A stretch of DNA of 64,000 nucleotides from a virus. The notes under the pieces were generated by a model. It saw only the letters and a program-made list of their open reading frames with translations, was not told the origin of the DNA and made no database searches. Shown piece after piece: positions 18,604 to 44,092 of the stretch; the stretch's first letter is position 1, and each line of letters starts with the position of its first letter. The position numbers and the translations under genes are program-made. The stretch spans positions 280,890 to 344,889 of IMG/VR virus record IMGVR_UViG_3300045988_179014, one strand, 5' to 3'.

Positions 18604-20469
18604 TCAACGTGGGGAAGTTTTGATAATAGCCAGCAAAAACTGTAATAAACCCACAACCAGCATAACACTCAACACTAAAAGAAGTATTGGTCCATAAATG
18701 ATAGGGATAGGAACAAAACTCAACACTGTCTTACCTGGAGCTTCTTCTTTCTTCAAATGAGACAGGTTGGTATGTTTCGCTGTTTTTGCCCGGTCATGTA
18801 ATCCTGAAATCGCCAACACCATAGAGGCCAATGCGCCGGTTCCTGCACCAATCAATCCCCAAAAAACAAAAATCAGGTTTTGATACATGGGTTGTATGTA
18901 CGGGAGCACAAATTGTTGACCTATCAAAGGAACTACAACAATCATGGATACAGAAACCATAAACGCTGTAAGCAATCCCAAACCCAAAGCCCACGGAATG
19001 GCGATGTTTCTTGCAGGATGCCACCATGCTCGTGCAAAAGATGGAGTTTCCTCTGCCATACAGTGAAAAGCTAGTTTTGGATTATGTCTTAACAGGACTC
19101 GATATGGTGGACGTACACCCCATGAACCATCTGCATAATCCAACACCATCTTGCCCTTGATTTTCTTTGGATGTGATGGTGAAGAAGTTTTCGTTGCAGG
19201 CTGTGTACGAGGGGTTATAGGATTGGGAGACGACAACCCAGCCATATTGGGAATTTGTTTAGCAGATTTTGGAGAGCTAGACGAATTAGGAGAGGAAATA
19301 CGTTGAGGACTCTGTGAAGGAATATTTGGTAAAGCCCTAGGTGCCGGCCCAATTGATGATTCAGCATCCTGAAACTTCACTGAAGGTAGCTTCTTCTGGT
19401 CCGGTATTTTTGTTTTAGGCACTTCACGGGACCATGGGTCAAGATTACCAGCATCTTTGTGAACACACCAAGCACACTGTTTGTCTTTACTGTCAAACCA
19501 GTGCTGAGAAACTTTTGAACATTGAACCAACCTGGACAATACGTCATCCAGTAAAGAAATAAAGGTTTCAAGAGATGGCCGTTTTGTCGGGTCAGCTTGC
19601 AATGCTTTTACCATAGGGGTGTGAAGTATTGACGGGATAGCTCGTGTGGGTATACGAGGTACTGGTCGGAAATGCCGAGCTGACGAAGGATTCAAACCAG
19701 GAAGAATTGATTGACGAATTTTCTCAACCATAGAGGGGGGTTCGTTTTTCTCATCTGTAAAAATACCATCAGTGGGATGTGCACCACCAGTCAACATCTG
19801 AAACATGGCAACAACATATGCAAACGTGTCAGATGCTATGGTTCGTCGCTGGTCTTTGAGAGACCCATGTGTCAATTCTGCTGCTGTGTATTCCGGCTTA
19901 CCGACCATACACGGAAATACACGTCCATCTTTTGCAACAATCTGAGCTGAATCGGTATCAACAATGAAAACACTGGCATCGGTTCCCACGAAAATGTTGG
20001 ATTCATTGACATCACCAACACAATGCCCTGCTGTGTGAATGGCGTGTATTGCTACTGCCAGGTTACGGCTTGCGGTCAAAGCATACTGAACATCAAAACC
20101 ACTGGCAGTTCCTCTACGGTCGCGTGTATTGGACAATTCAGCCCATGAACGATAGTTCGATGAATCCAGTTTTACCATGAGATAGCCTTGAAACTTCCCA
20201 TGCTCCGCCAACAATGCCAACGGCCATGCCACAGAGTTCGAATCTGGGGGCATTGTTACCATGGCCACCAATTTTTGGGTTCTATCGCCTTCAGCAGGAT
20301 TGTGATAGATTTTGGCAACCAACATGGACGCGTCAGGAAGACCATCAAGTGAATGTGATTCAACATTGTAGACAGAACCTTCTCCACCTTTACCCAACGG
20401 TTCATCAGAAATAACCACTGAACCTTTATTTGTTGGGGTACGGCCTAGGAGTTTTCTACTCACATCCAT
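18604..20469 (-). CDS. Ser/Thr protein kinase with Pro-rich linker and C-terminal 4-TM anchor
   Basis: It has a Gly-loop LGKGGEGSVY, a Lys VAKIYH, a catalytic loop HCVGDVNESNIFV and DTDS (DFG-like). A P/S-rich segment runs about 370-430. Four hydrophobic helices lie in the last 170 aa. Confidence 0.7.
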   Translation of the reverse strand: MDVSRKLLGRTPTNKGSVVISDEPLGKGGEGSVYNVESHSLDGLPDASMLVAKIYHNPAEGDRTQKLVAMVTMPPDSNSVAWPLALLAEHGKFQGYLMVKLDSSNYRSWAELSNTRDRRGTASGFDVQYALTASRNLAVAIHAIHTAGHCVGDVNESNIFVGTDASVFIVDTDSAQIVAKDGRVFPCMVGKPEYTAAELTHGSLKDQRRTIASDTFAYVVAMFQMLTGGAHPTDGIFTDEKNEPPSMVEKIRQSILPGLNPSSARHFRPVPRIPTRAIPSILHTPMVKALQADPTKRPSLETFISLLDDVLSRLVQCSKVSQHWFDSKDKQCAWCVHKDAGNLDPWSREVPKTKIPDQKKLPSVKFQDAESSIGPAPRALPNIPSQSPQRISSPNSSSSPKSAKQIPNMAGLSSPNPITPRTQPATKTSSPSHPKKIKGKMVLDYADGSWGVRPPYRVLLRHNPKLAFHCMAEETPSFARAWWHPARNIAIPWALGLGLLTAFMVSVSMIVVVPLIGQQFVLPYIQPMYQNLIFVFWGLIGAGTGALASMVLAISGLHDRAKTAKHTNLSHLKKEEAPGKTVLSFVPIPIIYGPILLLVLSVMLVVGLLQFLLAIIKTSPR

Positions 20470-20525
20470 TCCTTCTGGTGTTTGTACATGATTACATCAA
20501 ATATCATCTACTTTATTCACCGAAG

Positions 20526-21443
20526 TTATGCTCCATGTTCTTTCAAAAACTTCATCGGGTCTTGGGAATGGTAAACATCTCCTGGTGTTGTTCCTTTCGG
20601 ATACCATTCAAAATGCAAGTGTGGACCAAAACTACGACCGGTATTACCAACAACTCCAAGTCTTTGTCCAGCTACCACTTTATCTCCTGGTTTGACTTCT
20701 ACATTGTTCAAATGGGCGTAAAGGAAAGCGTCCCCGTTTGCGATACGTAGAACCACATTGTTTCCAGCCCATCCGGAACTGATGGATGATTCAATAACAC
20801 CATCTGAAACTGCTTGAATTGGTGTTCCAAGTGGCGCTACCAAATCCTGCCCTGTATGATATGACGCCCAGTTGCCTCTAGCACCCCATTGAGCCCCTAA
20901 ACGATATGAACCAGCAGCTAAAGGGAACACTACTCGTGAAACGCTTTCAGAGGTTGTTGCTGCGGGTTCATGTCCCTGTGTAAATGTTTCAGCACGTTTC
21001 TGAGCTTCCTCGGTTTTACGTGCTTCTTCTGCTTTCTCTTCAGCTATGCGCTCATTTTCCCGTTTCTGGGCCAACTCTTCGTCCACTTTACGACGTTCCA
21101 GCATGTCTTGTTGTGCACGTTCGATAGAAGCCTGTACAGACAGCTCTTTTTCGCGTTGAGCTACTTGTTGTTTCAATGTTTCTGCTTCCACATCAAAAGA
21201 CTTATCATGTTTCTGCATCCATGATTGTTGTACTTGTTGTTGACCCGTGACTGAAGACTGCAAAGCTTCTTCACTGAGGTACGGTTTCGTCGTCCCCTTG
21301 ATTATGGATGTATCTGGAGACAAAGCATTTGCTGGGTAGGAAGGCATGGAAGCTGAACTCATGAACAACGGCAAAGCCCCAAGAAGAACATACCGTAACG
21401 TTTTGGGCATCTTTTTACGATTACTATTACTGTCAATACTCAT
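20526..21443 (-). CDS. Secreted M23 family metallopeptidase with coiled-coil N-region
   Basis: It has a signal peptide MPKTLRYVLLGALPLFMSSASMPSYPANA, a long E/K/Q-rich coiled coil, and an M23 signature GNTGRSFGPHLHFEW. Confidence 0.8.
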   Translation of the reverse strand: MSIDSNSNRKKMPKTLRYVLLGALPLFMSSASMPSYPANALSPDTSIIKGTTKPYLSEEALQSSVTGQQQVQQSWMQKHDKSFDVEAETLKQQVAQREKELSVQASIERAQQDMLERRKVDEELAQKRENERIAEEKAEEARKTEEAQKRAETFTQGHEPAATTSESVSRVVFPLAAGSYRLGAQWGARGNWASYHTGQDLVAPLGTPIQAVSDGVIESSISSGWAGNNVVLRIANGDAFLYAHLNNVEVKPGDKVVAGQRLGVVGNTGRSFGPHLHFEWYPKGTTPGDVYHSQDPMKFLKEHGA

Positions 21444-21519
21444 TTAAACAATTCTTTCAATCAACTCACAAAAAATGTGGAGTCATGTTGATACGGCATG
21501 ACTCCACACTGAGACGGTG

Positions 21520-22287
21520 CTAGCGATGAGCTATTACCAACGTTGTATCATCAACCACTTTCTCTTTATCATCCATATAATCTAGAAATGCTTGCACATC
21601 CATGCCATCATCTTCCAATGCTCTCTTCACAACAGGATTCCAAAACCCGGGGGAGGGAGCATTTTCAGCTATGGACACATTTTCCAACCCATCAGATGAC
21701 AATGAAATGGCAACAATAGGTTCATCACCTGAATAATACAATGGTTGGTAATTGTTGTTTCTACTTGTCAACAATGTGGTCAGATTCGCAAATTCGCCTA
21801 TTTTATCTGGTCGAATCAGAGTATGATGATTGTTTGCATATGACACAACCGCAAATGCGTCCCCAACCACTGCTACTGCCCATGTGTCACCACTGATAGC
21901 GGCAAGAGCAATCGTGCAACCTATTTCTTCATGGTCATCTCGGTCCAACAAGGCATGACGAGCGGCTTCCAAACCTTTTTGTACTGCACCCATTGTATCT
22001 ATGCCGTCATTGAGTGCATCCATGGTTTCTGCTACTGATGTGGATGCAGCGATAGAGGCTCCGATATCTGACAATCGCAAGCTCCCAGCACCATCAGCTA
22101 CCGCAACAACTGTATGTCCATTTTCCTGCAAACTGGCATATGCATCTTGGTTGTTTTTATTGTTTACTTTGTTATGGGGACCTGTTACAGTACCAGCATT
22201 GACAGTTACATTCAAGGAAGTCTCCCCTCTGTCGAGTACATCATGGGAGAAAATATCACTCCGAATATGAAAACCAGTCCAAATCAC
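21520..22287 (-). CDS. PP2C-family Ser/Thr phosphatase
   Basis: It has NQDA, VAVADGAGS, SGD, SSDGL and DDTTLV blocks in PP2C order. The start overlaps the last array gene by 32 nt. Confidence 0.65.
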   Translation of the reverse strand: MIWTGFHIRSDIFSHDVLDRGETSLNVTVNAGTVTGPHNKVNNKNNQDAYASLQENGHTVVAVADGAGSLRLSDIGASIAASTSVAETMDALNDGIDTMGAVQKGLEAARHALLDRDDHEEIGCTIALAAISGDTWAVAVVGDAFAVVSYANNHHTLIRPDKIGEFANLTTLLTSRNNNYQPLYYSGDEPIVAISLSSDGLENVSIAENAPSPGFWNPVVKRALEDDGMDVQAFLDYMDDKEKVVDDTTLVIAHR

Positions 22288-23401
22288 TAAGCTCCAATTT
22301 CAAAGATAATGGTAATTCTGGATTGGTTTCAGATAAGGAAACAATGTCTTCTTGCAGTTTGAGAGACTTGCACAATACTTGAACAACTAATTGTGGCGCT
22401 CCCTGAATATTGTTTTCTTCCAAATCTGACATGTGTTGCAACAAATCCTCAAAATCACTACTACCTAACTTGAGATAAAGGTAAACGAACGGACTAAGAG
22501 GGTTGTATCTACCATAGAAGACGGGAAGAGCCAATTGAGTTCTAGCTGTTATGGTATTGAAGTCATTGGTTTCTTCATATGTCATGGCACCTGATAAATA
22601 CGTCGGGTGAGGTTTTGGTGCACGATACTCATAGAAACCCATCATACAAGCTTTTTCACTGAAGTCGATAAGGAAATTTTGCCGTACTCGCGCTAAATGG
22701 AGTTTGGTATAGCGGTTATCCCATATATACCAGTTTGACTCCATTATTGCTTTGACTTGTTCCAGAGAATATGACAACATTTCTCGTTGTTCTTCAGGAG
22801 ACAAATACAAGAACATGGGAACAATTACACCCAGATAAATTTTTAAATCTGGATATGCTTTTGTCAGTAAGTATAAATTTTCAAGTGAGTACGGATTAGC
22901 TCGGTGTTGACAGGACTGGTTGTTGAAATATGGCATGTACCCGTCAAAATCAATTTGGGCTATGAATGGGTTTCTTAAATTATAGCGACTCTGCTGATGT
23001 CGCAAAAATGACCATTCAGTCAGGTGCTCTGATACATAGAAACCATGTTGCCATAGAATCAAAAGTTGCACCAGATGCCTTAACCGTTCTCGTTGATGTG
23101 GATAGTCGCAAATCAACGCCAAGACTCGCGAATCCTCATCATCAAGACGTAACTGTGGGTCATGAAAATGAGGGTTGAAATCTTCAGTAATTGGGCTCGT
23201 ATCTGGATTTTCTAGCAATGCAAAATCTTCACTCAACGTATTCAATTGTTGAAAGGACAAAGCGTCTTTGCTTATTATCAAACCACGAGTTGACATATCT
23301 GGAGTAAAATCACATACTTGACCATCTAAGGTAACAATGATTTCTTCAGAAGACAACGCCAACAATTGCTCTTGTGTTATAGGTTTGATTGAATGACTCA
23401 T
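22256..23401 (-). CDS. Tandem paralog family member 1 (381 aa), uncharacterised family
   Basis: It shares all family blocks: VTLDGQVCDF, LALICDYP, NPYSLENLYLL, LSPEEQREM, AMTYEETNDF, YLYLKLGSSDFEDLL and ELPLSLKLELSDLDW. An SD GAGGAAAAG precedes the ATG. Confidence 0.8.
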   Translation of the reverse strand: MSHSIKPITQEQLLALSSEEIIVTLDGQVCDFTPDMSTRGLIISKDALSFQQLNTLSEDFALLENPDTSPITEDFNPHFHDPQLRLDDEDSRVLALICDYPHQRERLRHLVQLLILWQHGFYVSEHLTEWSFLRHQQSRYNLRNPFIAQIDFDGYMPYFNNQSCQHRANPYSLENLYLLTKAYPDLKIYLGVIVPMFLYLSPEEQREMLSYSLEQVKAIMESNWYIWDNRYTKLHLARVRQNFLIDFSEKACMMGFYEYRAPKPHPTYLSGAMTYEETNDFNTITARTQLALPVFYGRYNPLSPFVYLYLKLGSSDFEDLLQHMSDLEENNIQGAPQLVVQVLCKSLKLQEDIVSLSETNPELPLSLKLELSDLDWFSYSE

Positions 23402-23466
23402 GTACTTTTCCTCTATTTAGACCAATCTTTACTGGGTTTCTTCCGAATAATGGTTTTACTCGGTTG

Positions 23467-24639
23467 TCATTTCTTGTAGGAGAACCAATCCAAGTCGCTT
23501 AGTTCCAGTTTCAATGACATTGGCAACTCAGGGTTTTCCTGTGATATGTCAACAATCAATTCTTGCAGTTCAAAAGAATCCAACAGTGTACTAATTACAG
23601 ATTCTTTCGTCCCAGAAACCTCATCCTGCTGATTTAACTCATACACGTATCGTATAAAAGCTTCAAAATCAGCACTACCCAATTTAAGGTACAGGTAAAT
23701 GAACAGTTCTGGTACTCCACGTTTGCTGGTGAGATACTCAATTGGAAACATCAACGGGAACCGAGATACAATTGAATTGAAATCATTGGCCTCATCAGGT
23801 GTCATTGAACCAGAGTTTTCGGTTTTGACTGATGATGCCCTATATGAGTCTATGAATGAGAAACAAGCTAAGCTACCAGTAGAAATAGGGTACTTGTTCC
23901 GTATTCGTTCCAGATGCAGTTGAACGTAGCGTTCATCATCCAGGTACCAATACGATGTTGCCAATATTTCCATTTGTGCTGGGGTGTAGGACATGATTTC
24001 TTCTTGCTCTTCTTGTGGTAAACACATGAAAAACTGTTCTAGTGTTTTAGGGTGGAAGAAGACATCAGGATACATGTTTCTCATCCTGTACAAGTTTTCC
24101 AAGAAGTAAGGATTGGCACGATGCTCGCAAGCTAATTCATGGAAACGGGTTATCAAGTTTGCATTAAACATGCGGACCATGGCGAAAGGGGCGAAACCTA
24201 AAACACGACTCTGGTATTTAGCCAACGAATGTTCCGTGACTGCTTCTGATACATAAACACCATGTTGCCAATGAACCATAAGTTGAAGTAAGCGCTCTAA
24301 CCGTTCTATCTCAAGTGGATGGCAACAAACTAACTTCAACACCCGTACCTGTTCATCATCAAGACATAGTTGTGGTGTATGAAAATGCTGAAAACTGTTA
24401 GCGGGCTTTTTCAACTTTGACATACTTTGAACAGTTGTCAGGTCGGAACTCAATTTTACCAGTTGTTGAACTGACAAACCATTATTGGGTATTACCAAAC
24501 CTTGAGTACTCGTGTCAATACTGGAATCAAAATCCAATATTTGGCCTTCTAGCGTAACCATGATGTATTCACTAGTTTCTGATAACCCCAAGGAATTCTG
24601 TTCCTCACAAACGCACATGATAGCATTCTTCCAACACAA
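23467..24639 (-). CDS. Tandem paralog family member 2 (390 aa)
   Basis: It shares the family blocks VTLEGQILDFDS, LVCCHP, NPYFLENLY, LPQEEQEEIMSYT, YLYLKLGSADFEAF and ELPMSLKLELSDLDWFSY. Confidence 0.8.
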   Translation of the reverse strand: MCWKNAIMCVCEEQNSLGLSETSEYIMVTLEGQILDFDSSIDTSTQGLVIPNNGLSVQQLVKLSSDLTTVQSMSKLKKPANSFQHFHTPQLCLDDEQVRVLKLVCCHPLEIERLERLLQLMVHWQHGVYVSEAVTEHSLAKYQSRVLGFAPFAMVRMFNANLITRFHELACEHRANPYFLENLYRMRNMYPDVFFHPKTLEQFFMCLPQEEQEEIMSYTPAQMEILATSYWYLDDERYVQLHLERIRNKYPISTGSLACFSFIDSYRASSVKTENSGSMTPDEANDFNSIVSRFPLMFPIEYLTSKRGVPELFIYLYLKLGSADFEAFIRYVYELNQQDEVSGTKESVISTLLDSFELQELIVDISQENPELPMSLKLELSDLDWFSYKK

Positions 24640-24660
24640 ATCCAGTTTTCAAAACAACCC

Positions 24661-25815
24661 TTAATAGGATTGCACTCGTCTCAAATAGTCACCCAAATCA
24701 AACAACTCCAATTTCAGAGATAGTGGCAGTTCTGCGTCATGGTTGGATATAGCAATAATCTCATCCTGCAATTCGAGAGAATCAGCTATAATATTTAGTG
24801 TATGCCCCTTTCTCTCGAAGAATGTTGCCATATCCTGTTTTTGCATATACTGCAACAAGTCCTCGAAGGCACTACTACCCAACTTGAGGTAAAGATACAT
24901 CAGCAGGTGTACGATATGTTCGTACAAGAAATCATCGTATTCCAAGTTTTCTATGATTCTTTGAAAATCTTTTGCCTCCTCAATGGTCATCGCATAGGAT
25001 GTACGTATTCTTCTATGCGGCATTGAGGTCTCAAACGTGAATAGAATCAGTGGTAGATTCTTTCTCACGCGTTCCAAATGCAATTGCAGATATCGTGTGT
25101 TATCAGCGCACCAATCCGAATCCATCATTGCCCGCACCTGATTCTCGGTATGAGAATGAACTAGCTCTTCCTGCTCCTCTTTTGAAAGATGCATAAACAC
25201 ATCCACCATATTGCGAGGAGGGAATCTGATATCAGGATACTTTTCCACCAATGAATACAAATTCTTCAATGAATGTGGGTCAGGAGAATGACTGTCAATC
25301 CATATATTGAACCAACACAAAAACCCATATCCGCAATCAGCCCTATCTATTTTCACCATGAACGGACTGACTTGATAGGAGTCATAGTGTTCATGAAAAC
25401 TTGCCAACGATTTGTTCAGCATCTTCTTAGACACATGTATGCCATGCTGCCTAAGGATAATAAACTGTTCCAAATGAGGCAATCGTTCTTTTTGAGGGGA
25501 ATGGTCACAAATCAATCTCAGGACTTTTGCATCTTTCCCCTCAAAATGCAACAATGGCGCGTGAAAGTGAAGCGCCTCCAGATACGATGATTCCCTAGCC
25601 CGAGCAATACGCTTTCTTATCCATTTGATGTCTTTGCTCAGTTTTTCTATCCTTTTTGATGAGAACATATTGCATGGAACTACTAATCCCACATCCTTTA
25701 CATGTGCTGACTCGAATTTACAAACATCTCCATCCAAAGTAATGAGGACTTTTTGAGAATTGGACTTTTCCATCATGACAGCACTCCTCTTGGGCGTCCT
25801 TTCTATGCGTTCCAA
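24661..25815 (-). CDS. Tandem paralog family member 3 (384 aa)
   Basis: It shares the family blocks ITLDGDVCKFES, LICDHSPQKER, LSKEEQEELVHSHT, YLYLKLGSSAFEDLLQY and ELPLSLKLELFDLGDY. Confidence 0.8.
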   Translation of the reverse strand: MERIERTPKRSAVMMEKSNSQKVLITLDGDVCKFESAHVKDVGLVVPCNMFSSKRIEKLSKDIKWIRKRIARARESSYLEALHFHAPLLHFEGKDAKVLRLICDHSPQKERLPHLEQFIILRQHGIHVSKKMLNKSLASFHEHYDSYQVSPFMVKIDRADCGYGFLCWFNIWIDSHSPDPHSLKNLYSLVEKYPDIRFPPRNMVDVFMHLSKEEQEELVHSHTENQVRAMMDSDWCADNTRYLQLHLERVRKNLPLILFTFETSMPHRRIRTSYAMTIEEAKDFQRIIENLEYDDFLYEHIVHLLMYLYLKLGSSAFEDLLQYMQKQDMATFFERKGHTLNIIADSLELQDEIIAISNHDAELPLSLKLELFDLGDYLRRVQSY

Positions 25816-26125
25816 TACAAATTTATTGGGGTTCTATACATAGAGAATACCAGCCAAGACCATTAAGTTCAAGCTTCAGTAGCATAAACACTGTAGAGCC
25901 AACCTTGATGCTGTACCAATCTTGTCCTGTAATTTTGGTTTTTTACAGGACACGCAGAAACGCTAATTTCGGATGTCCAAATTTTAGCACTTTGAGTGAA
26001 ATTCGATGATGAGCATTTTTCTCCATACGCTCTCGAACTGATTTTCCTGTTTTTAAGGACTTTAATCAGTTTTGTCTTATTATCCTTGACGGGAAAACCA
26101 TGCAGAAACACTAATCCTGAAACTT

Positions 26126-27379
26126 CTATAGATAGTAATTTTGAATCAAAATCCTATCCTGTCTGCTATATCGACCACTCATTAACCAGTTGTCATATGC
26201 TTTTTCTCCATATGCTTGAACGAGTCTTTCATTCTCAGTTTTCACATATGAATACCAATCCAAATCACTAAGTTCGAGTTTCAGCGACATGGGCAATGCG
26301 GAGTCAAGTTTTGATGCTGCAATAATTGCTTCCTGCAATTCAACCGAATGATACAAAATATGAACCATAGGGCTCTTGTCGTGTCTATCATTTCTATCAT
26401 TGTTTTGCATATATCTCAACAATTCCTCAAAATCGTTACCCCCGAGTCTGAGGTATAGATAAACAAGCAATCTTATGAATACTACTTGAGAAGCTACTTC
26501 ATAACAATGGGGAACAACAAATCCGAGTCGAGCTATAATGTCTTCAAACTCATTCATTTCGTCAAGATTTAGTGCACATATGCGCATTGGTTCATCACCA
26601 CAACATACTGGTACTTTAAGCGTCATGTCATAAGCATCAATGCCTTTCCTTATACGCGAGAAATGAATCTTTCGATAACGCGCATCAGAGAAATACCAAT
26701 CCCCTTGAAAAACAGTTGTTCTAAGACCTAAAGAACCCCCAAATACTGGGTACACTTCTTGATTCTTTTGAAACAAACAGAGAAGCGCTGGTAGTACCCA
26801 AATACCATGACCAAACATGCCTCTTCTGCGCTTCTTGGCAAACTCTTCCAGTAGCTCCAACACATGAGCATTAACAGGATGGTCACACACCCAGTCATTG
26901 AAGTCTGGTTTTTTAACCCACTCATCATAACTGATTTCAAACATTACGAATGGAATATTTTCTTTAATAACATTATCCAGTACTGAGAGTAGAACTGAAT
27001 CGCGCCAGGTTGACAATGACTGCTTCGCCAGACGTTCAGAAACATAAATATTATGTTGTCGAAACACTATGAATTGTTTCAAATGGGATAATCGTGCTTG
27101 TGAATCTGGCCAATCCAGAATCGCTCTCAGCACTTTTAAGTCTTCCCCTTCAAGACTTAACTGCGGTTTGTGAAAATGGGATTCGTCTTTAGAAGCAAAA
27201 GAATTTCCCAATTCGGCCATATCAGCAGCTAACACCTTCAGTTGTTTATTTGATAACCCTCTACGGGGTATCAACAACCCATATGTTTCATTTGCTGATT
27301 GCGCCCATCTATGTATTTTGCCATCTAATGAAACTAAGATGGGAGAAACAAACTTTCCTAAAAGGTGCTTAAACAACAC
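26126..27379 (-). CDS. Tandem paralog family member 4 (417 aa) with C-terminal extension
   Basis: It has the family blocks plus a roughly 35-aa extra tail after LSDLDWYSYV. The 310-bp spacer downstream contains degenerate copies of this tail. Confidence 0.75.
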   Translation of the reverse strand: MLFKHLLGKFVSPILVSLDGKIHRWAQSANETYGLLIPRRGLSNKQLKVLAADMAELGNSFASKDESHFHKPQLSLEGEDLKVLRAILDWPDSQARLSHLKQFIVFRQHNIYVSERLAKQSLSTWRDSVLLSVLDNVIKENIPFVMFEISYDEWVKKPDFNDWVCDHPVNAHVLELLEEFAKKRRRGMFGHGIWVLPALLCLFQKNQEVYPVFGGSLGLRTTVFQGDWYFSDARYRKIHFSRIRKGIDAYDMTLKVPVCCGDEPMRICALNLDEMNEFEDIIARLGFVVPHCYEVASQVVFIRLLVYLYLRLGGNDFEELLRYMQNNDRNDRHDKSPMVHILYHSVELQEAIIAASKLDSALPMSLKLELSDLDWYSYVKTENERLVQAYGEKAYDNWLMSGRYSRQDRILIQNYYL

Positions 27380-27455
27380 AAAGCTCCCCTATTTTATAGA
27401 CTAAATTGATAATCACAATTCTAGTCTCAGGGGAGCCACGTGTCAATTCTGGCTA

Positions 27456-33194: not shown

Positions 33195-33233
33195 AACACT
33201 ACTCCTTTACCCTATTGACTCAATGACATCAGC

Positions 33234-35534: not shown

Positions 35535-35592
35535 AATGGTCTTTCGTCTTCATCAAGTTGATAGCATAATAATAGTACAGAGATAGAACTGA

Positions 35593-36717
35593 TTATTCCA
35601 CAGAATCCCAGTCCAAATCATAGAGTACCAATCTCAAAGACAGTGGTAACTCATCTTCTTGGTTTGGGGCAGGAACAATCAATTCTTGCAGTTGAGGGGA
35701 ATCATATAGTGTTTTCACAATAGACTCTTCCTTCTCGCTGTTATACTGGCAGTCTTGTAAATACTGTAGCAGTTCTTCAAAATCCGTGCTACCCAGTGTG
35801 AGGTAGAAGTAAACGAACAGCCCAAAAAGTTCATCAGAGAACATGTAAGAAATATTTGAGAAGATATATTTGGTTCGATTCAGGATTGCCTGAAAATCTT
35901 CTGACTCCTCCAATGTCATGGCACGAGCTGATTTTGATACATCAGATACTCCCCATATTGATGTGAATCGAAGAATAAAAGGATAGTTAACAATGGGAAG
36001 ATTCCGCTTCACCCGGTCAAAATGAAGTGACGACAGAAGCGCATGATGTATGTACCAATCACAATCCGTTATAGCTCTAACTTGGTCTGAAGTGTAAGAA
36101 TGCATGATTCTTTCTTGTTCACCCTCAGATAGTGTTGCAAACACCTTTAAAGCGCTAATGTAATTAATCTTTATGTTGGGGCGATTCTTGGCTAACCAGT
36201 GTATATTCTCCAATATGTTGGGACTAACAGAAGACTTGCACACTATATGATTAAAATTCATGCCAAACGAGTGTATTGAGCCAACATGACTGATTCCAAC
36301 CATAAACAGCTCCCAATCCACAGCCAACAAAGACTCTTGCGTGAGCTGCTCTGAGACACGGATTCCATGCTGTCTTAAATATAGAAACTGCTTTAGATGT
36401 TCCACCCTGTTTCGTGAACACTTATGGTCACAAATCAATCCCAGCACTTTTATGTCTTCTTCACCATCAAAACGCAGTTGAGGAATATGACAATGTTGGT
36501 TGTGTAAGGGACGTGATAACCAGACATCCTTTTTCAACACGGTTAATTGCCGTTTGGACAAAGCATTCTTCGGTATGACCAAACCGCGAATGACAGAGAC
36601 CTCAGAATCGAAGTCTACCACATCACCGTCCAATGTGACCATTATTGAACCAGAATTCAATATTTTCTTCATAATGCATATTCCCTTGTTTTCATTGATT
36701 GGATAGTTCAAGTTCAT
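35593..36717 (-). CDS. Tandem paralog family member 12 (374 aa)
   Basis: It has the family blocks VTLDGDVVDFDS, LICDHKCSRNR, LSEGEQERIMHSYT, YFYLTLGSTDFEELLQYL and ELPLSLRLVLYDLDW. Confidence 0.8.
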   Translation of the reverse strand: MNLNYPINENKGICIMKKILNSGSIMVTLDGDVVDFDSEVSVIRGLVIPKNALSKRQLTVLKKDVWLSRPLHNQHCHIPQLRFDGEEDIKVLGLICDHKCSRNRVEHLKQFLYLRQHGIRVSEQLTQESLLAVDWELFMVGISHVGSIHSFGMNFNHIVCKSSVSPNILENIHWLAKNRPNIKINYISALKVFATLSEGEQERIMHSYTSDQVRAITDCDWYIHHALLSSLHFDRVKRNLPIVNYPFILRFTSIWGVSDVSKSARAMTLEESEDFQAILNRTKYIFSNISYMFSDELFGLFVYFYLTLGSTDFEELLQYLQDCQYNSEKEESIVKTLYDSPQLQELIVPAPNQEDELPLSLRLVLYDLDWDSVE

Positions 36718-36733: not shown

Positions 36734-37832
36734 TATCCTATATATGAATCCCAGTCCAAATCATAGAGTTCAAGTTTCAACGACAATGGTAATTGAGGGT
36801 TCTCCTCTGAAATGGAAACAATCATTTCTTGTAGTTCGAAAGAATTGCACAATAAGCTCACAATAGCTCCTTGTTGATTACGAGAATAGTTTTGCAGGTA
36901 TTGCAGCAATTCTTCAAAATCTGTACTACCAAGTCTGAGATACCAATAAACCAGTGAACAAAAAGGTTATTGGATGTCCGATACATTTCATCTGTAACCA
37001 CGAACTTGGTTCTCTTCATAATCGCACAATAATCATGAATCTCGTTTGATGTCATGGCGCGAACCGACTTGTATACGTTAAATGCTCTTGTTGTAGATGT
37101 GAGCCTTATAACAAAAGTGTATACAACAATAGGAAGATTCTTCTTAACTCGCTCTAAATGAAGAGAACGAAGGGATTCATGACCTCTGTACCAATCACAG
37201 TTTAAGACGGCTTTAATTTGGTTTGATGTATAGGAGTACACCACTTCTTCTTGTTCTTCTTGTGACATCCATATGAAGATTTTCAGAATACCATCATAGT
37301 TGTTCTTTATGTTGAAATGTTTCTTACCTAGTAGATAGATGTTTGTCCAAGTGTGAGGATTTATGGAATGCACACAAATGTAGTAATTGAAACTCCCCAG
37401 AAAAGAACTCATTGATTCGTTGCCCCCAATTTTAAACATGAACGGGGTCTGGTGAGAATTTGACAATGACTCTCGTGCCAACCATTCTGGTACATGAATA
37501 CCATGTTGCCTAAAAATCAGAAATTGCTCTAAATGAGACACACGTTTTTGAGACTGAACATGGTCACAAATCAACTTCAAAACCTTTATCTCTTCTTCCG
37601 ATTCAAGGCATAGTTGAGATTTGCGTTGATGATGCATTTCATATTGAGTTCTTCTTAATTGGGCAACGTTGTCTCTCAGCGTTGACAACTGTTCTTCTGA
37701 CAAAACGTCTTTTGGTAGAACTATGCCACAGGGTATAACCTCAGAATCAAAATCCAAAACTTCACCGTCTAATGTGACAATAATTTGGTTTGAACAGGAA
37801 GACTTCAAGTTAGCATTAAGGTGATTACTCAT
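36734..37832 (-). pseudogene. Tandem paralog family member 13, disrupted by a frameshift at an A5/T5 run
   Basis: The N-terminal 290 aa are in the listed ORF 36858..37832. The conserved C-terminus (VYWYLRLGSTDFEELLQYL...LPLSLKLELYDLDWDSYIG) continues in another frame down to the stop at 36734-36736. The frame switch lies at the caaaaag run near 36950-36960. Confidence 0.7.
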
Positions 37833-38997
37833 AACTATTGGCCTTTAACACAGTTGAAATTCGACGCCTTCGGGAGAAAGAAGATGAGTCCCATTCCAGC
37901 CCACTGAGAACCAACCTCAAGGACAGTGGCAATTCACGATTCTGCTTTGAAACATCAATAATCGACTTTTTCATTTCTGAAGAATTGCACAACAGCGTTT
38001 TTATGAGAGTCTCCTTTTCGGAATGCTCGCAATTTTGTATATACTGAACCAATTCCTCAAAATCCGTACTGCCCAATTTCAGATAATAGTAAAACAACAC
38101 ACCAAATATTTCTTCAGGCGTTGTATCAATACTCTCCGGAACGGCAAATTCAGTTCGGTTTAGAATGGATTGGAAGTCATCTGCTTCATCCAACGTCATA
38201 GCCATAATAGAGATTTTAGCGTCGTACACCTTTCTTTTGGAGGAGTACCTTATAATAAATGAGGAACGAACAACTGGGGTATTTGCTCTGACTCGGTCCA
38301 GATGTAGATTTTTGAGAAGGGCGTCATCCAAGTACCATGAACTCCCCATTATTGCCATAATTTGGTCGAATGTATAGTAATTGATTATGGTCTCTTGTTC
38401 ATCTTGCGTCAAACAAAGAAACATTCGTAAAATAGCATCATAGTTTATCACCATATTCGGATATTTCTGTACCAACAAATATACGTTTTCCATAGAATAT
38501 GGATTTATTGACATATGGCATACCCAATCCTCAAAATTCTCTATAGGACTAGAACCTGTCGTACTGATTTACACTATGAATGGAACAATGGTGAATGCTC
38601 CTTGGTCCCAATAATAGTGAAAATCTGACAATGATTGTTTAGTCATTGTCTCAGATAAATATATGCCGTGTTGACGAAGATAAACAAAATATTCCAAATG
38701 AATAGCACACTCTACTAGGAATGGGTGGTCGCAAATCAGGCCTAAGACCTTTACGTCCTCATCGCTAAGTTTTAAATGACGAGTATGTATATGAATTGAC
38801 CGATGAAATGTACCAGGTAATAGTTTTAGGCATCTTGTCAACATAGACAGTTGAGTTTTGGAAAGAGCATTGTTTGGCAGTACTAGACCAGGAATCATCA
38901 GTTCCGAGTCAAAATCTAGGACCTCCCCATCTAACGTGACAATAATTTGACCCGAGCTAGAACTTTTTAACGCTATACTACTTGAATCATGACACAT
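37825..38997 (-). pseudogene. Tandem paralog family member 14, interrupted by an in-frame TAA
   Basis: ORFs 38569..38997 (N-terminal part, ...VPFIV*) and 37825..38514 (C-terminal part starting MSINPYSMENVYLLVQ) are in the same frame. They are separated by a TAA at 38566-38568. The neighbouring copy reads VPFIVDVSKNGS...DWVCDKAINPYSVENLYLL across that point. Confidence 0.7.
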
Positions 38998-39028: not shown

Positions 39029-40180
39029 TCATAATGTTTGACAAGAAGGATACGAGTTCCAATCCAATCCATTGAGAGCAAATCTCAAGGATAATGGCAA
39101 TTCACGATTTTGATTCGCAGCCAACAAGATAGATTCTTGCAACTCAGAGGAATTACGTAATAGAGCTTTTATGAAGCCTTTTGCAGAATCATTTTGTGCA
39201 TACTGTATTAATTCTTTAAAATCTGTAGCACCCAATTTCAAGTAATAGTAAAATAATACATTGAAAATTCTCGGAGATGATACAAGAATGTTCTCTGGAA
39301 TGACGAACTGGGTTTGGTCCATAATATTTTGAAACACAGTGGCCTCATCCAACGTCATAGCCCGCAGGAAGCGCTTAGTTTTATGCATTTCGCCTTTTGA
39401 TGTATGTCTCATAATAAATGGAAAACGAACAATAGGTGTATTTGCTTTGACACGTTCCATATGAAAGGTCTTAATAAGTGCATCATCTAAATACCATGTA
39501 CTGCTCATTAGTGCCATAATTTGGTCGAGTGTATAATCATTGATGATGTTTTCTTGTTCCTCTCGTGACAAACACAGGAACATTTTTAAAACTACATCAT
39601 AATTTATTTTAATATTTGAAGACTTCTGTACCAGCAAATACAGATTTTCCACCGAGTACGGGTTTATTGCTTTATCACATACCCAATCTTTAAAGCTCCC
39701 TATTGACAAGGAGCCGTTCTTGCTAACATCAACTATGAATGGAACAGCACTAAAGAGCCCTTGTTCCCAATAATGGGGGAAATCGGACAAGGACCGCTTT
39801 GTCACCTCTTTTGACAGGTAAATATCATGCTGGCGGAAATAAACAAAATATTCCAAGTGAATCGCAGAATCCCATTTTGACGGATGTTCGCAAATCAATT
39901 TTAGAACCTCCACATCCTCATCATTGCAGTGTAAAGGATTAGTATGAAGATGCTCTGATTCGCGAAATGTCCATGGTAAAGACTTAAAGCATTTTGTTAA
40001 CATAAGCAATTGATTCTCAGAGAAAGCGTCACTGGGCAGGACCAAGCCTTTCTTCCCATCCAATGCAGGAGAAAACGAACTAACATCCCCATCTAATGAA
40101 ACAAAAATTCTAGACTGGTGACCTTGTTCAGTAGCCTGATGCATGCCTCTCCTCGTGCTATGTTGACATTTTGTTCTCAA
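39029..40180 (-). CDS. Tandem paralog family member 15 (383 aa), first full-length copy of the array
   Basis: It has the family blocks VSLDGDVSSFSP, LICEHPSKWD, NPYSVENLYLLVQ and ELPLSLRFALNGLDWN. A 300-bp AT-rich region upstream is the probable array promoter. Confidence 0.8.
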   Translation of the reverse strand: MRTKCQHSTRRGMHQATEQGHQSRIFVSLDGDVSSFSPALDGKKGLVLPSDAFSENQLLMLTKCFKSLPWTFRESEHLHTNPLHCNDEDVEVLKLICEHPSKWDSAIHLEYFVYFRQHDIYLSKEVTKRSLSDFPHYWEQGLFSAVPFIVDVSKNGSLSIGSFKDWVCDKAINPYSVENLYLLVQKSSNIKINYDVVLKMFLCLSREEQENIINDYTLDQIMALMSSTWYLDDALIKTFHMERVKANTPIVRFPFIMRHTSKGEMHKTKRFLRAMTLDEATVFQNIMDQTQFVIPENILVSSPRIFNVLFYYYLKLGATDFKELIQYAQNDSAKGFIKALLRNSSELQESILLAANQNRELPLSLRFALNGLDWNSYPSCQTL

Positions 40181-40481: not shown

Positions 40482-41186
40482 CTACTCAACAATGTCGTCT
40501 ATGAGATGCATGTTCAATGAGAACGCCAAGCTCCATGGAAGCCCTTCAGATGCTTGTTCAATCGCTTTGACCCGCTTCAATCCCTCTCCAGGTGCGAACA
40601 TCTGTTTTACAATGAGACCAGGATAGGTTTCTCCAGCATTTTCCACAGCAAGCATACCTTGGAAAAAGTCTTCCAACTGGTCGTATTCTATTCCAATATG
40701 CAACAAAACCAGAATGATTTCCTGAACATCAAACTGATTCGCCACTGGACAACAAGGCTTGTATCTTTGTGTCACATTGTGGATTATGTCTCGTTCCGTC
40801 TCTGTGAACACAGAACGCAACTGAACCTTTGTGGACGGCCTGAACGGTATTCTGAAGTACACTATAGTAGATTCATGATAAGGCATTAACCCTTGATTAA
40901 TTACTCTGTCAAAATGAATCTCAAACGCTTCTTGATTATTTTTCCACCAAGCGTTGTCCAATAATGCCATCAATTGTGTTGTTGACAATTCAGAACCCCA
41001 TTGTCTGTAATCAACCCAAGGAGAATCGCTCAACCGAAACGCCATTTCATGCATTCGATATAAGTTAATGGGCCTATCACACCGAGTCTTCAACCAATCA
41101 AAAGCCGCTTCTGCATCCAATAATTGTTGTAAATCGTTTACTCTACCTGAAACTTGGTTGTAATCAAAAGAATAATTCGTCAACAT
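40482..41186 (-). CDS. Short divergent family member (234 aa) corresponding to the C-terminal two-thirds of the paralog family
   Basis: It aligns block-wise from the NPY..ENLY region onward: RPINLYRMHEMA, LSTTQLMALLDNAWW, HFDRV and VLLHIGIEYDQLEDFF. Its C-terminal variant is EGLPWSLAFSLNMHLIDD. Confidence 0.6.
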   Translation of the reverse strand: MLTNYSFDYNQVSGRVNDLQQLLDAEAAFDWLKTRCDRPINLYRMHEMAFRLSDSPWVDYRQWGSELSTTQLMALLDNAWWKNNQEAFEIHFDRVINQGLMPYHESTIVYFRIPFRPSTKVQLRSVFTETERDIIHNVTQRYKPCCPVANQFDVQEIILVLLHIGIEYDQLEDFFQGMLAVENAGETYPGLIVKQMFAPGEGLKRVKAIEQASEGLPWSLAFSLNMHLIDDIVE

Positions 41187-41486: not shown

Positions 41487-41732
41487 ATGTACGTTTTGGC
41501 GGTTGACATTGACAGCATTGATGCCCAATCTCCACGTTATGAGGTAGATATGGACGCTGAACTAGCTTGTCCTGAAGATTACAAGGTGTTCCTGGAAGAA
41601 TTCTGGGTATCTCATGCTGGAACCGACCATGGCCCCTTCCATACCAAAAACGAAGTAGAACATTTCATCAAAGAAACACTAAAACAAGATGAGGTGCAAA
41701 TCTTCGTCAATACTGTGGTATGGAATGAGTAA
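41487..41732 (+). CDS. Small acidic hypothetical protein (81 aa)
   Basis: It is the only plus-strand ORF in a 42-kb minus-strand block. GGAGA lies 5 nt before the ATG. A 16-bp palindromic hairpin follows. Confidence 0.35.
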   Translation: MYVLAVDIDSIDAQSPRYEVDMDAELACPEDYKVFLEEFWVSHAGTDHGPFHTKNEVEHFIKETLKQDEVQIFVNTVVWNE

Positions 41733-41881: not shown

Positions 41882-42289
41882 TCAAGCAGCACGTTTTTCC
41901 CATGTCCACTTTTGGTCCCGTTCCAACCAACACTCATGTAACGCACGACCAATCACCCTATGCAAAACTGCCTCAACATCAGAACGTGAACTTCGCCAAT
42001 CAGACTCACTAATATGAAGCAATTGTATTCCTCGGTCAAAACAGCGATAGGTTTTCTTCCTATGGTATTCTTCAGCAGTCAATCCAGTATTCCATTTGAC
42101 CACTTTGTCAGAATGCCAATAATCACCATTGACTTCTATCCCGACACTCAAATTCGGCAAATAAATGTCAATCTCCATGGGAAAAATTGCGACATGCTCA
42201 TTTATTACAATGTCTAAACTCGTTGGAACAATAGTACGAACATATTGCAGAATTTCTTCTTCCAAACAACTTTTCACATCATGATTCAT
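41882..42289 (-). CDS. DUF559/Vsr-like (PD-(D/E)xK) endonuclease-like protein
   Basis: It has the pattern IDIYLPNLSVGIEVNGDYWHS...ISESDWRS typical of Vsr/DUF559 nuclease-fold domains. Its start overlaps the stop of the upstream zinc-ribbon gene by 4 nt. Confidence 0.5.
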   Translation of the reverse strand: MNHDVKSCLEEEILQYVRTIVPTSLDIVINEHVAIFPMEIDIYLPNLSVGIEVNGDYWHSDKVVKWNTGLTAEEYHRKKTYRCFDRGIQLLHISESDWRSSRSDVEAVLHRVIGRALHECWLERDQKWTWEKRAA

Positions 42290-43308
42290 TGTTTGTTATT
42301 CCTACCCCATGAAACAGTTATTTTAGGTCCTCTACGCCCGAATGAAACACCCAAAGACGCCAAAGCCCCATTCCTTCTGGTTCGGGTAAATTCAACAATG
42401 CCACCCAATGTTGACACTTTCTTGACTTCAGACAATGTATCCGCTGTAACATCCTGAAGTGAAGAAGACTCCATCACAGAATTCATTGTCCCCGTCTCTG
42501 ATTGTTCCATGATGTTGGAATCATTTGAAACTATTTTTTCATCGGCTGTATCAGAAGCGTATAGTTTACCATCCACAGCATCTAATATTCTGGTTGTGGT
42601 TTCAATGTTGGTAATGGACACATCATCGTCTGCAAGAACCTCATCTGTTACTACACGTAATTGCTTTATTCTATTACAGGTGGGACATTCTTGACTTTGC
42701 AAACGTTCCTGTAAAGACAATGTGTATGTATGTGATGCATTAGGACATATCCACACCAACTGTTGAGTATCATTCATTCGTAACTCTTTGGGATTCACAC
42801 CAGAAAGTTGTGCCTGCAATTCTTGAAGTAATTCTGGGTGTGCATCCATGACCAACGCTGTATCAGGAATAGAATCCAACAAAGATTTGGAATCAGTATT
42901 GTTTGCAGCACACTCAGGACATCTACCTGCACATGCTATCTGATTTTGAACCCGTCTCTGGTAGGTGTGTCCATTATCGCAGGTCCACAACAGGTTCTTC
43001 TTGCTACCATATGTGACTTCATCAGCCTGAAACGGGGAATTCACATCCACCAGTTTTGCCAATTCTGGATGTGTCAGACTCAGTGGTTTGGTTCCTTTGT
43101 ACTGACATGTCACAGAACAAAGTTTTGGGTTGGTTTTACGAATGACATGGCGAGGAGTTGATTGATACGTGTGTCCATTCTGACATTTGAACACCAATTT
43201 CACATTCGTACCATAAGTTACTTCTGATGGAGTAATAGGTGACTGACTGGACACCAATTTAGCAATGTCTGGATGAGTGACTGCTAAGGATTGTGGTTTG
43301 GATATCAT
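42286..43308 (-). CDS. Zinc-ribbon repeat protein (three or more CxxGH...C..C ribbons, DUF4379-like)
   Basis: It has repeated modules VTYGTNVKLVFKCQNGHTYQ, VTYGSKKNLLWTCDNGHTYQ...CPEC and LVWICPNASHTYT...CPTC. The C-terminal third is low-complexity and acidic. Confidence 0.5.
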   Translation of the reverse strand: MISKPQSLAVTHPDIAKLVSSQSPITPSEVTYGTNVKLVFKCQNGHTYQSTPRHVIRKTNPKLCSVTCQYKGTKPLSLTHPELAKLVDVNSPFQADEVTYGSKKNLLWTCDNGHTYQRRVQNQIACAGRCPECAANNTDSKSLLDSIPDTALVMDAHPELLQELQAQLSGVNPKELRMNDTQQLVWICPNASHTYTLSLQERLQSQECPTCNRIKQLRVVTDEVLADDDVSITNIETTTRILDAVDGKLYASDTADEKIVSNDSNIMEQSETGTMNSVMESSSLQDVTADTLSEVKKVSTLGGIVEFTRTRRNGALASLGVSFGRRGPKITVSWGRNNKQ

Positions 43309-43393
43309 GGTAGATTTCCTTCTGATAGCCTATTTTCTACCATGATACCCAAATCATAATATTGCACTGTTTCAAAAACTGCTCATTAATCCA

Positions 43394-44092
43394 TCAGAAT
43401 TCAGCCCAACCGGCGGGACTTGGTAGAGGAACACGGTCAGCTTCAGGAGAACTAGCGCTCACACTTGACATACTGGCTGACAACCACTCAAACAAAGGCC
43501 CAAACGACATACCCCGCAAAGAAACACTCTCTCGGTTTCCCAATGAATCCAATTCAGCCTTGTCAGTGCCATCACCCACGCCAATCGCGAAGAAAGACAG
43601 TTTCTTGCCAGCTTCCATTTCTTTTATTCGAGAAGATGCAGCTGCCATGTCCTCTTTGGAAGAAGTGGATAAACCATCGGTGAGGAAAATGACCATTGGT
43701 CGAGTATAAGGAATACCATTGCGTTTGTAGTCCTGTTTACGATTCTCCAAATGGTCCAAACCAACTTGAATGGCTTTTGCCGAATTGGTGATACCCATAG
43801 GAATCAAATGAGGCAAAACCACATCATCAACAGTGGCAAAAGGAGTGGGTTCAGCAGGGGTGGTTCCGAACATCAAAAATGACAATTCCACCCTAGCTTT
43901 GGCCAATGGGTCTTTACGAATTGATGCAATAAGTGTATCCAACCCACCACTCAATTCATCTAATGGACTACGCTGCTCCCCAGGCCAAATCTGACACATG
44001 GAATCCGAAGCATCGATGAGAACCAGACAAGCACTACGCTGACTGGGATTGTTAGCAAACTCAACTTCACCAAACCAATCTTGTTCTGTCAT
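43394..44092 (-). CDS. TerY-like von Willebrand factor A (vWA) domain protein
   Basis: It has a MIDAS motif LVLIDASDSM, then T at GITNSAKAI and an acidic loop VIFLTDGLSTSS, and then FFAIGVGDGTDKAEL. The 232-aa size and layout match TerY-type vWA. Confidence 0.65.
   Translation of the reverse strand: MTEQDWFGEVEFANNPSQRSACLVLIDASDSMCQIWPGEQRSPLDELSGGLDTLIASIRKDPLAKARVELSFLMFGTTPAEPTPFATVDDVVLPHLIPMGITNSAKAIQVGLDHLENRKQDYKRNGIPYTRPMVIFLTDGLSTSSKEDMAAASSRIKEMEAGKKLSFFAIGVGDGTDKAELDSLGNRESVSLRGMSFGPLFEWLSASMSSVSASSPEADRVPLPSPAGWAEF

Follow-up and report, generated by a model that had tools for sequence, protein, structure and literature searches.

A TerY-P-type signalling triad split around an orphan paralogue array in a jumbo-phage-like genome

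The window analysed here is a 64,000-nt stretch of the IMG/VR virus record IMGVR_UViG_3300045988_179014 (positions 280,890 to 344,889) and is part of a 337,400-bp metagenomic contig, the close relatives of which are 343–347 kb contigs from other samples. Nearly all open reading frames (ORFs) of at least 100 aa between 18.6 and 44.1 kb of the window lie on the minus strand. Within this interval a von Willebrand factor A (vWA) protein, a PP2C phosphatase and a Ser/Thr kinase bracket an array of tandem paralogues. A first-pass annotation of the window had called these three genes a TerY-P triad and had suggested either phospho-signalling control of the array proteins or of their processing, or recruitment of the triad into a larger system. 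The three genes are as follows.

43394–44092, minus strand: TerY/YegL-type vWA protein, 232 aa, first triad gene (Pfam VWA 5.6e-7; phrog_28389 1.9e-40)
21520–22215, minus strand (longest ORF to GTG 22287): PP2C phosphatase, second triad gene (PP2C_2 1.4e-28; PP2C 8.9e-7)
18604–20469, minus strand: YegI-type Ser/Thr kinase, 621 aa, third triad gene (Pkinase 4.2e-8; phrog_37888 1.5e-33)

TerY-P is defined as a TerY-like vWA protein, a PP2C-like enzyme and a Ser/Thr kinase C-terminally fused to a zinc ribbon (PMC11090510, PMC4978471), and each of these components was recovered in the window. The vWA protein is 38% identical to E. coli YegL over its full length (E 3e-41), and a complete metal ion-dependent adhesion site (MIDAS) of the form DASDS...T...D is legible in its sequence. 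Matches of the YegL-like type at 37–43% identity were found among plasmid proteins, two vWA relatives carry the JGI name 'YegL', and the protein also finds, at 27% identity (E 2e-7), the vWA domain of the 'TerY-C metal binding domain' protein encoded on ter plasmids, where PP2C and kinase genes come after its gene. The phosphatase aligns with E. coli PphC over 213 residues (25% identity, E 3e-7) and is 47% identical to the PP2C of the related locus L015, with the acidic metal-binding motifs NQD, ADGAGS, SSDG and DDTT intact. Across 339 residues the kinase shows 31% identity to YegI (E 5e-38), up to and including the CxxC of a C-terminal zinc knuckle. By composition and orthology the three genes are accordingly assigned to the YegL/PphC/YegI branch of TerY-P. 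The triad call of the first-pass annotation is upheld in this respect, as are the positions that it gave for the vWA, PP2C and kinase genes. These three and the M23 peptidase, zinc-finger and nuclease genes, all on the minus strand, were each recovered by profile search with the E-value given beside it in the lists of this text.

The start of the PP2C gene deserves comment. An overlap of 32 nt between this gene and the last array gene had been described; it rests on the GTG at 22287 that begins the longest ORF and is probably an artefact. The probable start is the TTG at 22215, located 40 nt past the stop codon of the last array gene, because a strong Shine-Dalgarno sequence, AGAGGGGAG, lies 6 nt upstream of it and because homologues, that of L015 included, begin at the equivalent residue. 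The kinase may similarly start at a GTG two codons past the annotated ATG (20463–20469, minus strand), which is preceded by AGGA at a 6-nt spacing and fits the N-termini of relatives.

The kinase is laid out as a kinase domain, a C-x5-H-x8-C-x2-C zinc knuckle, a Pro/Ser/Gln-rich linker, a module with the motifs KGK..YADGS..VRP, and transmembrane (TM) helices. In an alignment of 26 kinase sequences the catalytic residues K53, D153, D171 and D173 and the zinc ligands C317, H323, C332 and C335 were invariant. Hydropathy identified three hydrophobic stretches (residues 489–523, 532–557 and 580–620) that fit 3–5 TM helices, in place of the four C-terminal helices proposed earlier. Nor is membrane anchoring unusual, as had been thought: the arrangement of knuckle, low-complexity linker, KGK..YADGS..VRP module and TM helices is common to 23/23 phage-type relatives aligned, and E. 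coli YegI has been demonstrated experimentally to be a kinase and a two-pass membrane protein (10.1101/819920). The anchor is a trait of the kinase family, YegI included, and not a peculiarity of this locus.

More than 100 clusters of relatives are 39–57% identical to the kinase, nearly all of them 39–52% over almost the full length. The C-terminal module was found at 40–52% identity in metagenomic relatives only, mostly in phage-like contexts, whereas the best kinases from species-representative genomes are 31–37% identical and cover the kinase and zinc parts only. Against a relative genome of 97% identity, the ratio of nonsynonymous to synonymous substitution rates (dN/dS) was 0.09 for PP2C and 0.15 for the kinase. 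The triad looks functional still and could work in trans, because none of its key sites is damaged (the MIDAS, the metal-binding PP2C aspartates, and the catalytic Lys/Asp residues and zinc knuckle of the kinase) and purifying selection acts on the genes. The order vWA, PP2C, kinase and the common strand are retained in the window. The genes do not, on the other hand, form the contiguous co-directional operon that is characteristic of TerY-P, as the vWA and PP2C genes lie about 21 kb apart and a hairpin and an M23 peptidase gene separate PP2C from the kinase. The features found at these two junctions are the following.

42286–43308, minus strand: DNA-binding half of a predicted split homing endonuclease, 340 aa (DUF4379 1.7e-27, three treble-clef zinc fingers, then a low-complexity tail)
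41882–42289, minus strand: predicted nuclease half of the same, 135 aa (phrog_3339 'homing endonuclease' 1.6e-25), overlapping the upstream ORF by 4 nt
41487–41732, plus strand: small acidic ORF, 81 aa (from the ORF list; a gene is called at the equivalent place in L001 and L097)
40482–41186, minus strand: most divergent and shortest array member, 234 aa (array hidden Markov model, HMM, 3e-50, C-terminal two thirds only)
39029–40180, minus strand: array member 15, 383 aa (alignment and array HMM)
37825–38997, minus strand: array member 14, split into an N-terminal ORF (38569–38997) and a C-terminal ORF (37825–38514)
36736–37832, minus strand: array member 13, frameshifted near its C-terminus (ORF 36858–37832 and a piece in another frame, 36736–36966)
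22256–36717, minus strand: array members 12 to 1, twelve intact paralogues of 351–417 aa with spacers of mostly 21–76 nt
21475–21509, minus strand: terminator-like hairpin directly past the PP2C stop (perfect 13–14 bp stem, 9-nt loop, UUUUUU)
20526–21443, minus strand: M23 metallopeptidase between PP2C and kinase (Peptidase_M23 1.4e-25, profile positions 2–92 of 96)

The two ORFs that follow the vWA gene had been described as a zinc-ribbon/DUF559 nuclease pair. The family matches point elsewhere, since phrog_559 ('HNH endonuclease') is matched at positions 146–305 by the zinc-finger ORF and at positions 307–416 by the 135-aa ORF directly following it. The zinc-finger ORF also matches the phrog_681 endonuclease, while the nuclease ORF matches the PADLOC HEase model (5.7e-5) and, weakly, the 'mobile intron protein' of PDB 3r3p (E 0.61). 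The two parts of a homing endonuclease, a nuclease family (phrog_3339, with consecutive segments of phrog_559) and a DNA-binding module (three copies of DUF4379), are both present. We predict that the pair is a free-standing homing endonuclease whose gene is divided between two ORFs, which would make it a selfish element rather than a nuclease working with the triad. It resembles phage homing endonucleases that combine zinc-finger modules with a PD-(D/E)xK-type nuclease (I-Bth0305I-like, PDB 3r3p) in that its halves correspond to consecutive segments of single-chain families and in that it occupies an intergenic junction of a conserved operon from which relatives lack it. It differs in consisting of two ORFs overlapping by 4 nt, and the 3r3p match is weak (E 0.61). 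The pair was present in every member of the window's clade examined and absent from relatives with a compact triad, which also lack the array. The 81-aa ORF listed above falls within the 695 nt that separate the endonuclease from the array.

The array consists of 16 co-directional units on the minus strand, of which two are disrupted in the window. With the exception of the shortest unit, which is 14–22% identical to the others, members share 25–58% identity. Members 13 and 14 are both intact in the relatives L096 and L097 (member 14 at 390 aa); in L097 two other units are split instead, and in L096 none of the 14 visible array genes is broken. Single copies are dispensable, since strains differ in which copies are broken. 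Unit number and order were nonetheless identical in the strains examined, with no recent duplicates. Comparison of the window with L011 gave dN/dS values of 0.12–0.33 for the array genes and 0.04–0.26 for flanking genes, indicating that these are real genes under purifying selection; diversifying selection on the array was considered and rejected at this divergence, the two ranges being close to one another.

In a profile search of 1.84 billion representative proteins, 13 matches to the array family at E <= 1e-10 were obtained, all of similar length and architecture. A search of all fetched loci with the array HMM recovered the family in the window's clade only and in none of the loci with a compact triad. 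On these searches the array is an orphan family confined to one phage clade. Searches of Pfam, NCBIfam, PHROG and PADLOC and of structures assigned no known family, domain or fold to it. An AlphaFold2 model of an array protein (predicted local distance difference test score, pLDDT, 82.4; predicted template modelling score, pTM, 0.79) comprises a small N-terminal beta unit, a mainly helical body and a central beta-hairpin, and found no match in the PDB or among viral structure models. The alignment contains four nearly invariant hydroxyl residues (S46, S122, T268 and S362) and a conserved acidic C-terminal motif. Tandem paralogue expansions of large phages and giant viruses are similar in that 16 co-directional copies occupy one locus, are deeply diverged, include strain-specific pseudogenes and occur in one clade only; the array differs from them in its lack of an assignable family, domain or fold, of recent duplicates and of variation in copy number.

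At the second junction the kinase had been placed two genes beyond PP2C; the M23 gene alone intervenes. The N-terminus of its product resembles a signal peptide; the protein also contains a coiled-coil region and the two zinc motifs of the family, HxxxD (HTGQD) and HxH (HLH). It is MepM/ShyA-like by NCBIfam, its top PHROG matches are endolysin and metallo-endopeptidase families, and the dN/dS against the 97%-identical genome was 0.14. The peptidase is probably secreted, which agrees with the export proposed in the first-pass annotation. Export is not the unusual trait it was taken for, as secreted M23 peptidases are common among the lysis and virion enzymes of phages, in line with the PHROG endolysin matches. 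No M23 gene was found at the triad loci of L015, L005 or L007.

Scans for consensus promoters and terminators returned counts no higher than in shuffled sequence. The hairpin past PP2C escaped the consensus scan on account of its 9-nt loop and was found by eye and by a custom scan. Its folding energy is −19.7 kcal/mol, and the 91-nt stretch around it has a minimum free energy of −24.3 kcal/mol (z −2.6). The custom scan, which covered the minus strand between 12 and 47 kb, detected just three strong terminator-like hairpins in intergenic positions (45296–45272, 21509–21475 and 16799–16756), the other two being the following.

45272–45296, minus strand: upstream terminator-like hairpin, −14.0 kcal/mol
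16756–16799, minus strand: downstream terminator-like hairpin, −19.6 kcal/mol

A division into two transcription units is possible, the first comprising a 148-aa gene, the vWA gene, the endonuclease, the array and PP2C, and the second the M23 gene, the kinase, a 194-aa gene and a HAD_SAK_2 gene. Such a division, which is one reading of the hairpins, would place the kinase in a unit separate from the vWA gene, the array and PP2C.

The loci of relatives were taken from the closest matches outside the clade to the vWA protein (~50% identity) and to the kinase (40–52%, full length). In L015 the vWA (5764–6447), PP2C (6536–7222) and kinase (7262–9133) genes are adjacent. Downstream of the L015 kinase are genes for a HAD_SAK_2 protein, a methyltransferase, an M50 peptidase and an NrdI-like flavodoxin, homologous to window genes 16947–17618, 15017–15874, 13541–14779 and 12941–13429 and in the same order. 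L015 in effect presents the backbone of the window without the array, the zinc-finger/nuclease pair or M23. The three triad genes are likewise adjacent in L005/L006, in a context of RecA, DnaB and MoxR-like genes, and compact triads were also found in L007, next to FtsH, SsgA and PBP genes, and in the faecal contig L002. Neither the array nor the zinc-ribbon/nuclease pair nor M23 was present at the compact-triad loci of L015, L005/L006, L007 and L002. Whether the array always travels with the vWA and kinase genes had been named as a check, and at these loci it does not. They agree with the triad call itself, which had been made dependent on the vWA protein falling within the TerY group and on linkage of the three genes in related genomes; both were observed.

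The same arrangement predominates in cells. A survey that took a single genome for each prokaryotic species yielded 80 loci, 75 of which had enough flanking sequence, and 62 of these 75 were compact with the same order and strand. An insert of 2.4–4 kb between PP2C and kinase was found in 6/75, all of them Microcoleus (L070, L075, L080, L088, L090 and L093); that of L080 (1971–5661) contains genes for a membrane protein, a protein with an RNase III domain and a nuclease of the Uma2 family. The Microcoleus insert may be genuine triad cargo. No insert between vWA and PP2C was present at any of the 75 assessable cellular loci. The disruption in the window is consequently of a known kind at the PP2C/kinase junction and exceptional and very large at the vWA/PP2C junction. 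When the vWA and kinase were searched against GenBank phages by tblastn, each found only two short unannotated faecal contigs, one of which, MT836238, carries a compact triad in bacterial-looking sequence.

The split of the triad is a derived insertion state, because relatives carry the compact operon without the array, the pair or M23 and because L015 does so with the same downstream gene order. Since the relatives have the contiguous operon and the window does not, the window is considered a disrupted TerY-P derivative. The reading that we prefer, with a probability of about 0.68, is that one orthologous TerY-P module has been inherited in a lineage of large phages in which the compact operon is the normal state, that the bracketing of the array is an insertion scar, and that the array, for whose control by the triad no evidence was found, is independent of it. 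The vWA/PP2C junction would have been colonised by a homing endonuclease, now split, and by an orphan gene that was tandemly duplicated to 16 copies, while the PP2C/kinase junction would have received the terminator hairpin and the secreted M23 gene. Array, endonuclease and M23 would all be secondary insertions making use of permissive junctions and local transcription. We infer this order of insertion events from gene content, as we do the transcription units above and all functional roles below. The array proteins are then most likely independent and individually dispensable host-interaction proteins that benefit from transcription at this locus without being obligate components of the switch.

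By analogy with YegI/PphC and with what has been proposed for TerY-P, the kinase would be anchored in the host membrane, its kinase domain facing the cytoplasm, and would autophosphorylate and phosphorylate targets when triggered. Activation might occur by autophosphorylation or oligomerisation as for YegI, PP2C would reset the signal, and the vWA protein would gate the switch by binding a ligand or partner through its metal site. The likeliest use of such a switch in a phage is to sense the state of the membrane or of infection, for superinfection exclusion or host take-over; modification of host proteins is a further possibility. These roles are plausible and are drawn from the cellular literature (PMC11090510) rather than from the data presented here.

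Several observations weigh against an insertion scar. The order of vWA, array, PP2C, M23 and kinase is fixed in every clade member examined (L011, L096, L097 and L098). Between the vWA gene and the end of PP2C there is no strong terminator, the genes are co-directional and the spacers short, and the array may be co-expressed with vWA and PP2C, as would be the case in a functional module. The 3' junction of the vWA gene is, moreover, also rearranged in two other phage lineages. In L013, a 697-kb contig, the vWA gene is inverted and an unrelated 393-aa gene is inserted at its 3' side. In L003, a 59.9-kb contig, the vWA gene is followed (region 2916–5020) by an FtsK-like gene and by an opposite-strand IS605-type TnpB (Cas12f-like) gene, and PP2C and kinase genes were not found within 10 kb of it, so that a third type of rearrangement is seen at this junction. 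Repeated rearrangement at this place could mean that cargo is purposefully recruited to it. The 393-aa gene of L013 was considered as a possible relative of the array and ruled out (hhalign probability 0.2%).

These observations bear foremost on the possibility, close to that raised in the first-pass annotation, that the array proteins and perhaps M23 are effectors or substrates within a TerY-P switch, with kinase and PP2C setting the phosphorylation of the array. We regard this as unlikely. A single strand with short spacers, the arrangement fixed across the clade and the purifying selection on the array genes all speak for such an extended system, as do the nearly invariant S46, S122, T268 and S362 and the conserved acidic C-terminal motif. 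Co-transcription of array, vWA and PP2C is possible because the only strong terminator comes just after PP2C, and cargo flanked by genes for TerY-like vWA proteins has a precedent in CoCoNuT systems (PMC11090510). The triad is nevertheless complete, compact and conserved without the array in all other relatives, and a selfish homing endonuclease occupies the same junction. Single array copies are lost in single strains, and a terminator and an unrelated gene precede the kinase. The linkage of array and triad carries no comparative weight, because the array family exists in one clade only and affords no independent co-occurrence. The proposal that array, zinc-ribbon/nuclease pair and M23 together form a larger system under triad control fares no better, as compact relatives lack all three and the terminator sets M23 and the kinase apart.

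A more specific version holds that the vWA/PP2C junction is a cargo slot filled with 16 co-transcribed orphan effectors that are gated by kinase and PP2C and recognised by the vWA metal site. We consider this doubtful. The repeated rearrangement of the vWA 3' junction in phage relatives, set beside none in the 75 cellular loci, speaks for it. If it were true, the slot would represent a phage-encoded, phosphorylation-gated multi-effector system without a described counterpart.

In the preferred reading the triad is carried by a phage. The genome, of ~337–347 kb, is treated as that of a jumbo phage on its gene content, because it encodes an RIIA-like protein (phrog_612, 2.7e-62) and nucleotide-metabolism genes, because many window proteins match PHROGs only or nothing at very low Pfam coverage, and because neither tRNA genes nor Rfam matches were found in the 64-kb window. 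The window additionally encodes a T5orf172-ResIII helicase and a flavodoxin/thioredoxin-reductase pair, and just beyond it lie genes for the small subunit of a ribonucleotide reductase, for a dCMP deaminase and for an ART-PolyVal protein. It weighs against the phage assignment, and with it the preferred reading, that no capsid, terminase or other structural gene was present in the sequence examined, so that gene content is the basis for calling the genome a phage. The region gave no megablast match to plasmids, no record was identical to the RIIA-like protein, and vWA peptide patterns scanned against IMG/VR found no relatives.

It is conceivable that the locus instead belongs to a bacterial chromosome or megaplasmid and is a defence island in which a host TerY-P defence system has acquired nuclease cargo. 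TerY-P triads are typically cellular and defence-associated (PMC11090510, PMC4978471), nucleases are close by (the homing endonuclease, a GmrSD_C-like protein and NucS), and the relative L007 has the bacterial-looking neighbours FtsH, SsgA and PBP. We judge this to be highly improbable in view of the RIIA-like protein, the T5orf172-helicase, the many PHROG-only matches and very low Pfam coverage, the nucleotide-metabolism genes and ART-PolyVal beyond the window, and the lack of tRNA or rRNA within 64 kb. Several independent assemblies of 337–347 kb were also recovered, kinase identity is at most 37% in species-representative genomes as opposed to 40–52% over the full length in metagenomic relatives, and no TerY-P-type match was obtained with PADLOC. 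That three unrelated signalling genes should lie within 25 kb by mere coincidence can be dismissed, for although they are separated by 21 kb and 0.9 kb and the generic Pfam VWA and Pkinase scores barely exceed threshold, the nearest relatives of each gene reside in compact vWA, PP2C, kinase operons of the order and strand seen in the window, all three match products of E. coli yegL-pphC-yegI, and the flanking gene order is common to L015 and the window.

Among described systems, E. coli yegL-pphC-yegI is the most similar, as all three proteins match (38%, 25% and 31%), the order is the same, and both kinases have a zinc element and a membrane anchor. In E. coli B strains the PP2C and kinase genes overlap by ATGA, and in K-12 they are separated by yegJ (10.1101/819920), so that in the K-12 arrangement yegL-pphC-[yegJ]-yegI an unrelated gene likewise lies at that junction. 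The window module differs in being phage-borne and in its 21-kb insert between vWA and PP2C, for which the cellular loci offer no parallel (0/75), and the C-terminal module of its kinase (linker, KGK..YADGS..VRP, 3–5 TM helices) has no counterpart in the C-terminal half of YegI. TerY-P of Anantharaman et al. 2012, as summarised in PMC11090510 and PMC4978471, has the same composition, and the window vWA finds the vWA domain of the plasmid TerY-C protein. As far as those summaries describe the TerY3-PP2C-kinase genes of ter plasmids, the window differs from them in the absence of TerD, TerZ or TerW nearby and of a TerY-C domain, in being non-contiguous and in its phage setting; no ter genes were found in the window. 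The TerY-P-like anti-phage system of Gao et al. 2020, in the account given by PMC11090510, follows the same three-domain logic and provides an experimental precedent for such a triad in phage-phage or phage-host conflict. According to that account its kinase is fused to an OB fold, whereas the window kinase has a zinc knuckle and TM helices, and among PADLOC models only generic kinase and PP2C matches and no specific vWA match were obtained, so that a system of this type was not recognised.

The TerY-P type as such is known, and what is new is a phage-borne, insertion-split triad beside a new orphan paralogue family. To our knowledge TerY-P triads have so far been described solely as cellular modules of stress response or defence, with neither signal nor substrates assigned. 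The conservation of the triad within a phage lineage, the phage-specific membrane module of the kinase and the lack of a bacterial representative above 37% suggest that the switch serves the phages themselves, to exclude competitors or to control the host. On a modest reading, a phage-specific TerY-P triad may be conserved in a wide, undescribed group of very large phages represented by contigs of 345 kb to ~700 kb. The locus provides a natural before/after pair in the form of the compact operon (L015-type) and the split operon of the window's clade, as well as a 16-member family with a confident predicted structure and no detectable relative. If it is an insertion scar only, which we judge most likely, its chief value is as a warning that bracketing by parts of a known system is no evidence of membership in that system.

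Phage-type triads were observed on further very long contigs. L013/L014 is a contig of 697,643 bp (JGI 3300031088 Ga0308157_10000025) with such a triad; in the 18 kb read, Pfam coverage is sparse, and an Lsr2-like gene and homologues of window genes 52156–52482 and 8190–9653 are present. The kinase matches P0158, P0160, P0166 and P0172 are on contigs of 573–828 kb that carry a phage-type triad. These contigs may belong to related megaphages or to cells with small genomes. As to the host, one gene at the edge of the window is of interest.

495–1169, plus strand: NucS/EndoMS mismatch endonuclease, complete (NucS_N 6e-16, NucS_C 2.9e-20)

NucS is typical of Actinobacteria and Archaea. Together with the DUF4379 fingers, the Lsr2 gene of L013 and SsgA of L007, it gives a hint of an actinobacterial host.

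Among the remaining genes of the window, the one directly downstream of the kinase (17805–18389, minus strand) encodes a 194-aa protein in which a ParB/sulfiredoxin-like 'DGNHR' motif was noted by eye; no significant match to it was found in any library searched, and at its position L015 carries two unrelated 185-aa paralogues. An M50 site-2 protease with a PDZ domain (13541–14779, minus strand; 1.2e-41) is kept with its neighbours in L015 and L011, which places an intramembrane protease a few genes from a membrane kinase in a phage. A T5orf172 (GIY-YIG-like) domain is fused to a ResIII/SNF2-type helicase in a 1062-aa protein (3890–7078, minus strand). On the plus strand a phage-carried type IV restriction-like nuclease combines GmrSD_C (4.6e-14) with HNH_4 (56558–57418), and a 222-aa protein (52536–53204) has a weak match to PTH2, peptidyl-tRNA hydrolase 2 (2.2e-7).

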